From: Escherichia phage vB_EcoM_phAPEC6
Sequence record: MK817115.1
Reading direction: 5' to 3' (one strand)
DNA: 64,000 bases
Below are positions 1,146 to 14,261 of this stretch, in pieces. The notes under the pieces are model-generated. The model saw only the letters and a list, made by a program, of their open reading frames with translations. It made no database searches and was not told where the DNA came from. A program made the translations under genes and the position numbers. Numbering within the stretch: the stretch's first letter is position 1; every line of letters begins with the position of its first letter.

Positions 1146-1217
1146 ATTAATGCCAGTACTTGATACTGGCTTTTCTTTTTTGTATTAAATATAGTATAAT
1201 GAATAAAGGAGGGAATT
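1146..1217 (+). promoter_or_regulatory. Array cassette: terminator hairpin + promoter-like box + RBS
   Basis: Hairpin GCCAGTA-CTTGA-TACTGGC followed by a T-run; invariant GTATTAAATATAGTATAATGAATAA; AAGGAGGG 7-8 nt before ATG. Confidence 0.7.
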
Positions 1218-2360
1218 ATGTTACCTTTTGCAAGAATGGTTAAGTACGGAAATGAAGCACCAGAACCAAAACCTCTATTTAAAAATAGATTACAAGCAAA
1301 TTATAATACTCGTTTTTATTTGCATGTTAATGGTGACTTGTACTGGTATGGTTCATCTTCATTTGGACAAGGTGGTAATGGTTCATTACAATCATCCACC
1401 GTATGGACCCGTGTGAATAATAATATTGAACGTTACTGGGGTGGTGTTCTTGGTTCCATTGCCATTAAGAATGATGGAACTATTTGGTTCACAGGTGCTA
1501 GTATAGTAATGCCACAAATCGGAACAAATACAAATGGGGTTTGGATTGATGTAACCCAGTACTTCACTGATTTTGGTGTCAGTGCTGATGATATTGATGG
1601 TATTGCTGTTGGACAGAATTTGCGTGTATTTTTGAAAAATGGAAAATGGTTCTACTGTGGTGCTGGCGAGGGTGGTGTATTTGGTAACGCATCAACAGCT
1701 AATGTCACATCGTTCAGATACAGCACTATAGAAAATGTTAAAAGTTATGGCTGTTCTTTGCTCAGTACTGGGTTAGTTCTTGATGATGGTTCCTATTGGT
1801 ATGCAGGAAATACTGTTGCTCCTGGTAGTACAACAACATCAAATATATTAAGTTTTACAAAAGACAATACGATCACCAATGCTATACAAGCTGTAAATAC
1901 ATACCGTACTTCATATATATTTCTTAATGATGGTTCAGTGAAGGTTGCTTCACCAAATGCATATGGTCAAGCTGGTGTAGGTAGAGTATCAGCAGTACCA
2001 ATGAGTACATTAATTCCCAATTTATCATTCCAAGGTGAAATAGAGTTGGTGGGTGGTTTATCCAACAACGAAGGGAATGGATGTGTTGTTAAAAATAATA
2101 ATAAGTTATATACTTGTGGTCGAAATACCTATGGTGCATGTGGTGTTAATCAAACATCCGAAAATATACTAACTTTCACCGAAATGGTTCTTGATGCATT
2201 AGAAGGAAGACGAATTTCAGGCTTCGTAATTGATAATTTCTATTCAATGATAATTGATGAAAATAACAATTTGTATATGAGTGGTTTGGCTGAACTTGGA
2301 AATGTTCCAGCCGTGAGAGTTCCAACCAGAGTCCCCGATTCCCTTCTACCGTGGAAATAA
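1218..2360 (+). CDS. Array member 2: RCC1-like beta-propeller repeat protein with MLPFARMVKYGN leader
   Basis: Shared leader; blade motifs LYWYGSSSFGQGGNG, LYTCGRNTYGACGVN; own cassette upstream. Confidence 0.85.
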   Translation: MLPFARMVKYGNEAPEPKPLFKNRLQANYNTRFYLHVNGDLYWYGSSSFGQGGNGSLQSSTVWTRVNNNIERYWGGVLGSIAIKNDGTIWFTGASIVMPQIGTNTNGVWIDVTQYFTDFGVSADDIDGIAVGQNLRVFLKNGKWFYCGAGEGGVFGNASTANVTSFRYSTIENVKSYGCSLLSTGLVLDDGSYWYAGNTVAPGSTTTSNILSFTKDNTITNAIQAVNTYRTSYIFLNDGSVKVASPNAYGQAGVGRVSAVPMSTLIPNLSFQGEIELVGGLSNNEGNGCVVKNNNKLYTCGRNTYGACGVNQTSENILTFTEMVLDALEGRRISGFVIDNFYSMIIDENNNLYMSGLAELGNVPAVRVPTRVPDSLLPWK

Positions 2361-2433
2361 TGTAATATGCCAGTACTTGATGCTGGCTTTTCTTTTTTGT
2401 ATTAAATATAGTATAATGAATAAGGAGGGATTT
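2361..2433 (+). promoter_or_regulatory. Array cassette: terminator hairpin + promoter-like box + RBS
   Basis: Same hairpin, TATTAAATATAGTATAAT box and AAGGAGGG as other cassettes. Confidence 0.7.
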
Positions 2434-3543
2434 ATGTTACCTTTTGGAAGAATGGTTAAGTACGGAAATATTGTACCTGGTCCTAAAAATATAATTAAAG
2501 TTGGTGCTTCTACACAAGGTCAATTCTTATTGACTGATTCACATGATTTATATTACATAGGTAGAAATCAAGGTGGTGAATCTGGAAATGGTAATACCAA
2601 CACGGTATCTTCATGGATATTAGTAAGTGCAGATGTTTCTAATTTTTTCGTGGGTGATCGTACACTTGTTATTATTAAAAATGATAATACTATATGGACA
2701 TCAGGTCAAACGTACTGGTTCTCATCTTCTACGACTACTTCTTACAGTACTGTATTAGTTGAAAGGACTAATTGGTTTACTAATGCTATACCAGTCAGTG
2801 AAATTGCTAATATTGTATGTACAAATGGTTTAATATTTGTACTTAGCACTAATTCAGTACTCTATGGTGCAGGAGATAATGGATATCGTGGTTCTTTGGG
2901 TATTGGTTCATCATCAATTTATACATTAACTCAATGTGCTACGAACGTTCGTAAAGTAATGACCAATGCGAATGATAGTATGTATCTTACATTAGATAAT
3001 AAGCTATATAGTTCTGGATGGAATAGTAGTGGGCAGCATGGTACGGGGAACCAAACACAAATTAACACTTGGGGATTGCGTAGTTCTGGTGTAATCGATG
3101 CAGCCATTGGTGGTAATGCATTAAATTACTATAATGGTACATCATATTTCGTATGTGGTCAAACTCCAAACTTTCTTAGTTCAGGTACGACTACATTCCG
3201 TGCAGTTCCTGTAAGTACTTTGCCTAATAGTTCTCCGTTGTTTATGACGAATTCACCTGCATTAAATACTGCTACACAAATGGTAATTACTAGTACATAT
3301 CAAAAGGGTGTTGGGGCGAACCGTGGTTTGGGATTAAACAATTCTCAAACTGGTGCTATATATAGTGCTACCAATTTACAATTACCCGTTGAAGTTAGTG
3401 AGATTAGGGATGTTCTTTTTAGTGATGGTTTGACATCGATATTAACCAAAAATGGAGATGTGTATAGTACTGGATCGTATTACGCCATTCCAGGTGCAAT
3501 CGAGGATGTTGCAGTCTTTACTAAAATTGATTTACCAAAATAA
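2434..3543 (+). CDS. Array member 3: RCC1-like beta-propeller repeat protein with MLPFGRMVKYGN leader
   Basis: ORF-track start 2377 lies inside the cassette; ATG at 2434 is RBS-preceded and gives the shared leader; blades LYGAGDNGYRGSLGIG, LYSSGWNSSGQHGTGN. Confidence 0.85.
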   Translation: MLPFGRMVKYGNIVPGPKNIIKVGASTQGQFLLTDSHDLYYIGRNQGGESGNGNTNTVSSWILVSADVSNFFVGDRTLVIIKNDNTIWTSGQTYWFSSSTTTSYSTVLVERTNWFTNAIPVSEIANIVCTNGLIFVLSTNSVLYGAGDNGYRGSLGIGSSSIYTLTQCATNVRKVMTNANDSMYLTLDNKLYSSGWNSSGQHGTGNQTQINTWGLRSSGVIDAAIGGNALNYYNGTSYFVCGQTPNFLSSGTTTFRAVPVSTLPNSSPLFMTNSPALNTATQMVITSTYQKGVGANRGLGLNNSQTGAIYSATNLQLPVEVSEIRDVLFSDGLTSILTKNGDVYSTGSYYAIPGAIEDVAVFTKIDLPK

Positions 3544-12939: not shown

Positions 12940-13019
12940 TACTATAAAACTATGCCAGTACTCGATACTGGCTTTCTTATTTTGGATTAAATATAGTATA
13001 ATGAATAAAGGAGGGAATT
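12940..13019 (+). promoter_or_regulatory. Array cassette: terminator hairpin + promoter-like box + RBS
   Basis: GCCAGTACTCGATACTGGC hairpin, GATTAAATATAGTATAAT, AAAGGAGGG. Confidence 0.7.
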
Positions 13020-14189
13020 ATGTTACCTTTTGGAAGAATGTTAAAGTACGGAAATATTAAACCAACTCTTCCTGAAATAAAGAAATTGGATGGTAGTCAA
13101 TTACATGTCGGATTACTTTATAGTACAGGGAATATGTACATGCGTGGTTCTGGTTCGAACTATAAATTAGGTACAGGGGATGCTAGTGATGTATTAGGTG
13201 GTTGGGTACATGTACCCTATGAAGTTGATGATTTTTGGGCGTGTGTATCCGGTACATTAATAAAGACTGTTGATAATAAATTATATTGTGCAGGTCTATA
13301 CATGGGTGGATATTTTGGGGCTAGTGGTTCATATGTTAACTGGACTGAAGTAACTTCATTATTTGTAGGTATTGACGTGTCGCAAATAAAGAATATAGAA
13401 TTTACGTCAGCGGGGACTTCCGGTAGTACACTAATATTGATGTTAGATGGTCGTTTATATGGGTTCGGTATGAACAGTAGATCTGAGTTAGGTGTTAATA
13501 ACAAAGTTGTATCTCCCATTCTTATAGATACTGAGGTAAGTGCAATAGGAGCACATAAGTTAGGCGGTTCATCGTTCCATTATATAAAAGGCGGTAAGTA
13601 CTACAGATGTGGAACATCGGTTGGTAGTAATATTGGAAGTTCTTCTTTAACTACTTTTACGGTATTGAGTATTCCTGATAACGTTATATCTATGCAAATA
13701 TTATATGACAACGTACAGTTATTATGTTTAGGAAGTTCTGGATATAGTATCTATATGGCTGGTTCTAATGATTATGGTGGAAGAGGTGTTGGTGGTTCTA
13801 CTGTTTACACTACATTCAGGAAAATAGATCTTACAGGATTTGGTGTTGTTCCCAGTGAAATACTATTTGAAAATGCTGGAAATGGTTATGTTAATATATC
13901 AACTGATAGTACTGGGGTATATACATGTGGTGGTGGGGCTGGTGTTAATGGTTTAGGTAGACCAACTGATGTGATACCAAGTTCACAGTTGGGTTCGGTT
14001 CAGTTCAGTACTGGAGTAGAACCATCAAATATAAGTCGTGTGTATTCACAGAGTTCGAGTTCTGTTATATATTGTATAGTTAATAATGAATTGTACTGGG
14101 CTGGTAGTAATTCATATTTTACTGATCAAACCACAAATACTGGTACACAATTTTCATTTATTAAGATGAAGGATATGCCTTCTGCTTAG
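13020..14189 (+). CDS. Array member 12: RCC1-like beta-propeller repeat protein with MLPFGRMLKYGN leader
   Basis: Shared leader; paralog of member 9; blades LYCAGLYMGGYFGASG, LYGFGMNSRSELGVNN. Confidence 0.85.
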   Translation: MLPFGRMLKYGNIKPTLPEIKKLDGSQLHVGLLYSTGNMYMRGSGSNYKLGTGDASDVLGGWVHVPYEVDDFWACVSGTLIKTVDNKLYCAGLYMGGYFGASGSYVNWTEVTSLFVGIDVSQIKNIEFTSAGTSGSTLILMLDGRLYGFGMNSRSELGVNNKVVSPILIDTEVSAIGAHKLGGSSFHYIKGGKYYRCGTSVGSNIGSSSLTTFTVLSIPDNVISMQILYDNVQLLCLGSSGYSIYMAGSNDYGGRGVGGSTVYTTFRKIDLTGFGVVPSEILFENAGNGYVNISTDSTGVYTCGGGAGVNGLGRPTDVIPSSQLGSVQFSTGVEPSNISRVYSQSSSSVIYCIVNNELYWAGSNSYFTDQTTNTGTQFSFIKMKDMPSA

Positions 14190-14261
14190 ATTTTATGCCA
14201 GTGCCTTGTACTGGCATTTTTTTGTCCTAAATATAATAACGATTTACATTTGGAGGATACA
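14190..14261 (+). promoter_or_regulatory. Diverged array cassette
   Basis: GCCAGTGCCTTGTACTGGC hairpin, CCTAAATATAATAACG, GGAGGA RBS: recognisable but degenerate copy. Confidence 0.5.

Follow-up and report, generated by a model that had tools for sequence, protein, structure and literature searches.

A module-framed, variable array of RCC1-like genes in a Rak2-like jumbo coliphage

Why should tandem genes that encode very different proteins each begin with nearly the same stretch of DNA? This question is raised by a gene array in Escherichia phage vB_EcoM_phAPEC6 (sequence record MK817115.1), of which a stretch of 64,000 nucleotides (hereafter the window) was analyzed. A previous reading, made from the sequence only, had noted that the array members sit in near-identical cassettes made of a terminator, a promoter, and a ribosome-binding site (RBS), and had proposed a cassette system that shuffles or expands by homologous recombination. 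We compared the array with those of related phages. The genes turned out to be framed by a module of roughly 120 bp, which is probably the site at which whole genes are deleted, replaced, and re-ordered.

An array that differs in every genome

By sequence similarity, the phage of the window is an Asteriusvirus, i.e. a Rak2-like jumbo coliphage. Over their full length, positions 15000-39000 of the window were 99.1% identical to Escherichia phage vB_Eco_slurp01; identity to SP27, 121Q, PBECO4, and G17 was 97-98%, and all five phages are Asteriusvirus. Positions 1-15000 were matched by 36 phage records, none of which covered at least 80% of them, and the alignments began or ended at 1143-1152 or 5992-5997, which are cassette positions. 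This part of the window is occupied by the array (positions 3-14685), which consists of 13 tandem genes, all on the plus strand. Ten encode intact RCC1-like propellers and one an unrelated glycine-rich protein; the other two are degenerate. A cassette is present at ten of the junctions, and two are directly coupled. The members open with ATGTTACCTTTTG(C/G)AAGAATG, the last one (14262) with a diverged form of it. The sequence-only reading had placed the array at 1146-14261; the array itself was recovered, but not these limits, since the first member already starts at position 3, and the array may extend past the left edge of the window.

The arrays of 13 genomes (the window and 12 related phages) were cut at the member starts, and the gene bodies were clustered into types at a nucleotide identity of at least 80% over at least 70% of their length. 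The 157 members fell into 33 types. All 13 arrays differed from each other, while the flanks of these genomes were 87-99% identical, and array size ranged from 9 to 14 members. The order was V-L-A-E-P-B-F-C-G-J-M-H-N in the window (broken frames in J and N), O-E-A-I-D-B-F-C-G-J-M-H-N in SP27 (J and N broken), Q-R-O-E-A-I-D-B-S-C-T-H-K in slurp01 (S and K broken), D-L-A-I-B-F-W-C-G-J-M-K in 121Q (G, J, and K broken), and Q-E-A-P-D-L-B-F-G-T-J-H-N in G17 (J and N broken). Types L, P, D, U, and H varied in position between genomes, and no type occurred twice within one genome. Variation in array size and order among relatives, which had been suggested as a check of the proposal, was found in all 13 genomes, even with a backbone that is 97-99% identical. 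A scan of IMG/VR with a 27-mer promoter box retrieved 121Q itself only and added no population data.

The ends of the array were fixed. In the 11 relatives where it was readable, the left boundary consisted of GGTAAATATGATATAATGAATAAGGAGGG followed by ATG, without a hairpin, whether the first type was O, Q, D, R, or E; that of WPEC3 was not included, because the record is cut off before the array start. The right boundary was a diverged cassette followed by type K or N in all genomes except UE-S1, whatever type preceded it. In 12 of the 13 genomes the last member was degenerate: type K has a broken frame, and type N (member 13 of the window) is derived from type K by the internal loss of ~730 bp and has a frame break as well. 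UE-S1, by contrast, ends with an intact type Z. The degenerate last member has kept a cassette of its own, which is diverged, and its leader is divergent too (MLPFRRIITSSKQ).

The nearest relatives of the window members were found in different genomes: L and A in 121Q; F, C, G, J, M, and N in SP27 (99-100% identity); and H in BAU22 and E9.1. Members E, P, B, and V were new alleles or, as the case may be, a new type, V being 67% identical in nucleotide sequence to types D and W. The pattern of similarities argues for a mosaic ancestry of the window array.

The repeated module and the ends of exchange

All ten cassettes of the window contained a hairpin, a T-run, an A/T-rich promoter-like box, and a Shine-Dalgarno sequence, as had been claimed. 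The literal GCCAGTAC-loop-GTACTGGC hairpin that had been attributed to all of them did not hold up, as it was present in exact form only three times, most of the remaining hairpins being variants of the GCCAGTA-CTTGA-TACTGGC type. The hairpin family CCAGTA..TACTGG occurred seven times in the array, compared with 0.02 expected. Folding energies were between -10 and -14.4 kcal/mol (z-scores -3.9 to -6.1), except for the mutated hairpin at 3544-3581 (-6 kcal/mol); from its hairpin onward, this third cassette closely matched a cassette at another junction in 121Q. The 25-mer box GTATTAAATATAGTATAATGAATAA was exact in eight cassettes and had one mismatch in a ninth, none being expected by chance, and it was absent from the rest of the 64 kb (the other 49 kb of the window). 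The tenth cassette (14190-14261) contained a diverged version of it, GTCCTAAATATAATAACG. A scan of positions 1-16000 against Rfam identified no known RNA family. Just outside the array, a stem CCAGTAC-TATTAA-GTACTGG was present at 15343-15362 between two minus-strand genes, directly 5' of AGGAG and ATG, and without T-run or promoter box; the array is thus not the only place where this stem occurs.

When measured on the 115 cassettes found in the 13 genomes, the homology tract extended from ~10 nt 5' of the hairpin to about position +38 of the gene, i.e. over roughly 120 bp, compared with the ~110 bp that had been estimated around each gene body. The conservation of the first ~45 nt of the genes was also borne out, with 87% identity among 12 members versus 34% for nt 46-90. 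This segment encodes a leader of 12-15 codons, MLPF-x-RM-x-KYGN-x-x-P. Beyond residue 15, the ten intact propellers shared 18-33% protein identity (mean 22%), the closest pair of paralogues in the window being 33% identical, and 10 of the 16 invariant columns of their alignment lay within residues 1-15.

The leader was homogeneous down to its synonymous positions. Codons 2, 3, 4, 6, and 12 were the same synonymous codon in 12/12 members; for independent codons drawn with the usage of the gene bodies, the probability of this is ~5e-19. At positions 9 and 10, minority codons were used in 11/12 members. The single-copy RCC1-like virion protein gp1 of Cronobacter phage GAP32 starts with MLPFSRIIQYGNIAP, encoded with other synonymous codons (CCA, AGG, and others). 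The leader peptide is thus kept in GAP32 gp1, indicating protein-level selection across genera; nucleotide identity within arrays seems to need something beyond such selection. We also observed that a hairpin, a T-run, and GGTAAATA precede the GAP32 gene (positions 1459-1560 of locus L014), and the arrangement of putative terminator, xTAAATA box, and leader is therefore older than the Asteriusvirus array.

Cassettes were detected at 115 of the 144 junctions of the 13 genomes. The sequence on the left of the hairpin tracked the upstream type, with a mismatch of 0.11-0.14 versus 0.7 for pairs of junctions sharing only the downstream type. In pairs that shared only the upstream type, the mismatch climbed to background after the hairpin, and linkage to the downstream type showed the reverse pattern, with a low mismatch from the T-run onward. 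The hairpin was linked to neither of the neighboring genes; its loop differed in 61 of 130 orthologous junction pairs and was drawn from a small recurring set of variants. Moreover, in near-identical genomes, the loop at one junction could be the exact reverse complement of that at the orthologous junction (comparison of 7261-7279 with 8067-8085 in the window, and of orthologous junctions in relatives). Nine pairs were exact flips (AAA/TTT, CAGAG/CTCTG, CTCAG/CTGAG, CTCAAG/CTTGAG, and GCCAGTACTTGATACTGGC/GCCAGTATCAAGTACTGGC), of the kind that a small inversion or a template switch at the palindromic stem would produce.

Individual crossovers could be located. In 121Q, the I>B junction was identical to the I>D cassette as far as the Shine-Dalgarno spacer and showed B markers by +42, which identifies it, as judged from these markers, as a deletion of D between two repeats identical over ~115 bp. 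The L gene of G17 started with the D>B cassette and a B-type leader up to +38, followed by the L body, and in SHEFM2K the C>J junction showed a switch inside the leader. All 115 cassette junctions were clean, with no truncated neighbor genes.

Among the 29 junctions that were missed by the cassette detector, 26 were directly coupled and three, located 3' of types X and Y, had a diverged cassette. In every case, the cassette-less or diverged state followed the type of the upstream gene (E, J, T, b, d, and the short 3' form of G): type E had no 3' cassette in any of the nine genomes having it (9/9), and the same was true of type J at 9/9 junctions seen. In the window, the two cassette-less junctions with direct coupling that had been described were confirmed at 4811-4822 and 11820-11829. 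So was the relic of another member's 3' end in cassette 10532-10639, by matches to members C and A: positions 10545-10563 corresponded to the 3' end of member C (8132-9283) at 18 of 19 bases (E 0.008), and positions 10566-10585 to the pre-hairpin sequence of type A (member 2434-3543), at 20 of 20 bases in the copy of phage UB and 19 of 20 in the window's own copy. Cassette-less junctions and relic thus behaved as heritable properties of particular upstream types.

We propose that the unit of this array is a gene framed by a module of ~120 bp that comprises stem-loop and T-run, box (TTAAATATAGTATAAT), Shine-Dalgarno sequence, and the leader of 12-15 codons. As the comparison of genomes shows, non-allelic homologous recombination within the module deletes, replaces, and re-orders whole genes; we take the module as the recombination site because it is the only sequence common to otherwise very different genes. 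The survivors of each exchange would stay correctly equipped for expression. The exchange may take place between co-infecting relatives or within concatemers, be carried out by the phage's own recombinase, and, at the same time, keep the module homogeneous at the nucleotide level. The proteins would be low-abundance virion components and the leader a short tag for incorporation or docking, so that the array would represent a quickly re-assortable set of virion-borne proteins. Taken with its presumed agents and virion role, we consider this explanation likely. Of the earlier idea that the system shuffles or expands by homologous recombination, the part on shuffling, deletion, and replacement is supported by the linkage switch and the mapped crossovers; the part on expansion is not, no type being present twice per genome.

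Several points weigh against this explanation. Much of the conservation could be due to strong purifying selection on the module for its regulatory elements and leader, with no role in recombination. There are no duplicates within a genome, and the products of unequal crossing-over are visible only as losses. The 13 genomes are relatives rather than independent samples, some of them are short-read assemblies in which repeats of 120 bp could in principle be mis-joined, and crossovers were mapped base by base at three junctions only. No sigma-70 -35 match was found, the T-runs are interrupted, and the roles of promoter and terminator are deduced from sequence. Finally, virion association is taken from published data (phAPEC6, GAP32, and JP4), in which several identifications are based on 1-5 peptides.

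The first of these points can be turned into a full alternative, in which the module is conserved solely for the shared terminator, promoter, RBS, and N-terminal peptide, and array differences arise through ordinary loss and illegitimate events. This would agree with the retention of the leader peptide in a single-copy gene of another genus (GAP32 gp1), but hardly with synonymous positions that are identical among 22%-identical paralogues and different in GAP32. Similarly, the persistence of the architecture in diverged versions (the X/Y cassettes and cassette 10) is what selection would produce, while the cleanness of all 115 cassette junctions, without truncated neighbors, and the switches mapped within the homology tract are not. 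Orthologous junctions are indeed more alike than paralogous ones; yet hairpin variants recur at unrelated junctions and differ in many orthologous pairs, as mentioned above. We therefore regard selection without recombination as improbable.

A second alternative is an amplification system (gene accordion), in which the locus grows and shrinks by tandem duplication, the cassettes being copied along. The shared fold, leader, and cassette imply that the paralogues did originate by duplication, and array size does vary between 9 and 14 members, but these size differences are explained by the presence or absence of distinct types, and the lack of any type in two copies, together with a closest pair of only 33% protein identity in the window, led us to reject it as a current process and makes it very unlikely as the explanation. 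Least credible of all is that the differences are assembly artefacts: although repeats of ~120 bp in ~10 copies can mislead short-read assemblers and several records are of draft quality, the sub-orders E-A-I-D-B, B-F-C-G, and J-H recur in independent assemblies from different laboratories and countries, types are truly present or absent beyond any re-ordering, and junction-specific variants are consistent across genomes.

Two further mechanisms were considered and rejected. Site-specific recombination of the integron or shufflon type was discarded on the basis of the single orientation of the genes, the spread of crossovers over the tract, and the absence of a nearby recombinase, and a diversity-generating retroelement because no reverse transcriptase was found and it is whole genes that differ. 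Indeed, neither a recombinase nor a reverse-transcriptase domain was found in nine neighboring open reading frames (ORFs; 14.6-28.8 kb).

Gene products, expression signals, and virion association

The features of the array are listed in Table 1.

Table 1. Members, cassettes, and direct junctions of the array, in window coordinates
Feature	Coordinates	Strand	Description
Member 1, type V	3..1145	+	380 aa, RCC1-like; type absent from the 12 other genomes
Cassette 1	1146..1217	+	hairpin 1152-1170, T-run, box 1182-1206, AAGGAGGG
Member 2, type L	1218..2360	+	380 aa, RCC1-like; 99.6% identity to 121Q copy
Cassette 2	2361..2433	+	hairpin 2369-2387 with one stem mismatch; box 2399-2423
Member 3, type A	2434..3543	+	369 aa, RCC1-like
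Cassette 3	3544..3613	+	weakened hairpin (-6 kcal/mol); box 3579-3603
Member 4, type E	3614..4810	+	398 aa, RCC1-like; divergent allele, 82% nucleotide identity
Direct junction, no cassette	4811..4822	+	TAGGAGAAAATA
Member 5, type P	4823..5992	+	389 aa, RCC1-like
Cassette 4	5993..6062	+	hairpin 5997-6019; box 6028-6052
Member 6, type B	6063..7253	+	396 aa, RCC1-like; leader variant MLPFARMMNYGN
Cassette 5	7254..7324	+	hairpin 7261-7279; box 7290-7314
Member 7, type F	7325..8059	+	244 aa, glycine-rich, not RCC1-like
Cassette 6	8060..8131	+	hairpin 8067-8085; box 8096-8120
Member 8, type C	8132..9283	+	383 aa, RCC1-like; modelled as propeller
Cassette 7	9284..9355	+	hairpin 9290-9309; box 9320-9344
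Member 9, type G	9356..10531	+	391 aa, RCC1-like
Cassette 8	10532..10639	+	relic ~10545-10585; hairpin 10572-10596; box 10604-10628
Member 10, type J	10640..11819	+	split reading frame
Direct junction, no cassette	11820..11829	+	
Member 11, type M	11830..12939	+	369 aa, RCC1-like
Cassette 9	12940..13019	+	hairpin 12954-12972; box 12984-13008 (1 mismatch)
Member 12, type H	13020..14189	+	389 aa, RCC1-like
Cassette 10, diverged	14190..14261	+	hairpin 14195-14217, T7, CCTAAATATAATAACG, GGAGGA
Member 13, type N	14262..14685	+	degenerate; divergent leader (MLPFRRII..)

All nine RCC1-like members that were scanned passed the Pfam cut-offs for RCC1 and/or RCC1_2, and the RCC1-like members belong to phrog_4219. 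The AlphaFold model of member 8 (type C) was a propeller (predicted template modeling score (pTM) 0.82) that aligned to UVR8 with a template modeling (TM) score of 0.78-0.81, and also to RPGR, HERC2, and RCC1. Pfam repeats and a seven-bladed fold thus both assign these proteins to the RCC1 propellers. The label "DNA condensation protein" that they carry is a transferred annotation, which nothing in the present analysis supports.

Member 7 (7325-8059) belongs to phrog_4474, distantly to PF21722, and is unrelated to RCC1; it could be assigned to no Pfam family and had no match by sequence in the PDB. It carries the same 12-residue leader on a non-homologous body, the homologues found elsewhere starting with MLELL.. 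or MIELL... A metagenomic homologue (P0003; 58% identity) also starts with MIPFARIVKYGN. The AlphaFold model of member 7 was confident, with a predicted local distance difference test score (pLDDT) of 92 and a pTM of 0.88. Its best match in a fold search of the PDB was the cyanophage Pam3 fiber, which was weak (E 1e-3, TM 0.32), followed by the glycine-rich domain of ALK.

A frameshift near 11420-11432 in member 10 (type J) leads to a stop of the ORF at 11449, and the body runs on in another frame to 11819. One extra base disrupts a GQLGNG motif, and type J was split by the same frameshift in all ten genomes having it. Programmed frameshifting was considered and rejected, as there is no slippery site and the motif is broken by a single extra base. 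The first ORF of type J encodes 269 residues (~30 kDa), a size that fits phAPEC6 gp007, a 30.06-kDa "DNA condensation protein" detected in virions; a truncated type J product may be made and packaged.

As far as expression is concerned, the hairpin and T-run probably form an intrinsic terminator or attenuator of the upstream gene, and some of the same hairpins are marked as terminators or repeat regions in the GenBank records of G17 and UE-S1. The first array gene of the 11 readable relatives had the box and the Shine-Dalgarno sequence and no hairpin, which fits a promoter for the downstream gene and a terminator for the upstream gene. No sigma-70 -35 element was found in the cassettes at 16-18 nt from TATAAT, the best candidate being CTGGCA-17-TATAGT in some of them; a sigma-70 scan gave 81 promoter-like matches, compared with 73 in shuffled sequence, and did not single out the cassettes. 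The element xTAAATA was common to all versions of the cassette (including the X/Y ones), to the left boundary of the array, and to GAP32 gp1. A late motif ATAAATA has been reported for the Rak2-like phages CBB and GAP32 (PMC5259590). It is this late motif and the T4 late promoter that the xTAAATA box resembles; it does not look like a sigma-70 -35/-10 pair. A late-promoter-like box would suit virion proteins. Both the promoter and the terminator activity of the cassettes are deduced from their sequence.

Published data place several proteins of this kind in virions. The virion proteins of phAPEC6 include eight array members, identified with 1-5 unique peptides each (PMC7247149), GAP32 gp1 was reported as a structural protein (PMC5259590), and the supplementary dataset on JP4 contains two array members, with one peptide each. 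In both AlphaFold models, the leader formed an unstructured N-terminal extension: pLDDT was 45 over residues 1-10 and 66 over residues 11-20 in the propeller, and 41, 64, and ~97 over residues 1-10, residues 11-20, and the remainder in the glycine-rich protein. It is conceivable, though we put this forward tentatively and hold it to be rather less likely than otherwise, that the leader MLPF-x-RM-x-KYGN is a transferable signal for virion incorporation, acting in capsid targeting or in docking to the tail or baseplate. Docking to the tail or baseplate is considered because the best, weak, structural match of the glycine-rich member was a cyanophage fiber, and by this analogy it would be just as possible as head targeting. 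If the leader were such a signal, the array would be the jumbo-phage counterpart of the internal-protein loci of T-even phages; any body placed behind cassette and leader, propeller or fiber-like, would be expressed late and loaded into the particle; and phages engaged in an arms race over host range or host defense would re-assort their virion load by recombination in the cassettes.

Other variable or repeated loci were seen in the surroundings of the array. Upstream of the main array, relatives have another tandem array, encoded on the opposite strand, which consists of ORFs of ~60 residues arranged end to end, the number of which varies between 15 and 27 per genome (positions 129-4713 of locus L006, 2396-6991 of L002, and 13733-18936 of L008). 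At 18713-20599 of the window, the minus strand contains an ORF of 628 residues without Pfam match, which is also present in slurp01; at this position, 121Q and E9.1 have endonuclease or HNH endonuclease genes and SP27 has nothing, making it another polymorphic spot. The minus strand of the window also contains runs of abutting ORFs of 104-123 residues at 16107-17809 and 24650-25339; some pairs among them shared 24-25% identity over ~105-110 residues, which suggests old tandem paralogues.

Comparison with known systems

The multiplicity of RCC1-like genes is already in print, with 11 in phAPEC6 and several in 121Q and PBECO4 (PMC7247149, PMC5259590). The literature searched on these phage genes only counts them and speculates on DNA condensation; the genes annotated as RCC1-like "DNA condensation protein" in Asteriusvirus, phAPEC6, and GAP32 are of the same family as those of the array (phrog_4219, Pfam RCC1/RCC1_2). 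No description of the cassette, the leader, or shuffling between genomes was found in the literature searched on Asteriusvirus, phAPEC6, CBB, Sharanji, UE-S1, and JP4. The present analysis replaces the "DNA condensation protein" label by a testable proposal, that of re-assortable, leader-tagged virion proteins. In practical terms, the array is a marker, being the most variable part of otherwise near-identical phages that are candidates for therapy, and it is a likely site of assembly errors.

The closest parallel is with the promoter-early stem-loops (PeSLs) of the T4-type phages RB49/phi1, PST, and nt-1 (Arbiol et al. 2010, PMC2839356; Comeau et al. 2014, PMC4122927). Both are repeated intergenic motifs of ~100 bp that lead from the upstream stop through stem-loop, promoter, and Shine-Dalgarno sequence to the next start, and both are concentrated in a hyperplastic region, the gene content of which varies between close relatives. 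The ends of insertions, deletions, and replacements fall in the motif, as shown in the array by the linkage profile and three crossovers, and in both cases homologous recombination at the motif is proposed to move genes along with the signals for their expression. There are also clear differences. The two motifs have no sequence relationship, the array being found in the Rak2-like jumbo lineage. PeSLs feature a sigma-70 early promoter with -35 and -10 elements, whereas the box of the array is xTAAATA and late-like. In the array, the stem-loop is always 5' of the promoter and the homology reaches ~38 nt into the coding sequence. Its cassettes frame one paralogous family and one captured foreign body, whereas PeSLs frame unrelated ORFans. 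Promoter and terminator activity as well as excised mini-circles are features of PeSLs; in the array, promoter and terminator are putative.

A second parallel is with the internal-protein (IP) loci of T-even phages, the products of which carry a capsid targeting sequence (Repoila et al. 1994, via PMC2839356, PMC3012670, and PMC12373910). As described in these sources, IP loci are, like the array, highly polymorphic, and encode dissimilar proteins with a common short N-terminal leader; PeSL-like elements (promoter and stem-loop) flank the IP genes, the products of which are found in virions. IPs are small basic proteins, whereas the array proteins are propellers of 370-400 residues, and the T4 leader contains an (L/I)-x-E protease-site motif. 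This prohead-protease motif is not present in the leader of the array, MLPF(G/A)RM(V/I)KYGN(I)(A)P.

The array shows the layout that defines both systems and behaves like them when genomes are compared. Because neither the sigma-70 promoter nor the (L/I)-x-E motif is found in it, it is neither a PeSL nor an IP system in the strict sense; we regard it as a new, non-homologous representative of this kind of system. Its mechanism is known from T4-type phages and has not been described previously for this phage group in the literature searched. The example is unusually clean: the gene types number 33, the ends of the array are fixed, and crossovers have been mapped base by base. It would extend beyond the classical T4-type phages, to the Rak2-like jumbo phages, the principle of PeSL and IP systems, namely that short regulatory modules double as recombination handles and allow accessory genes to be exchanged with their expression intact.

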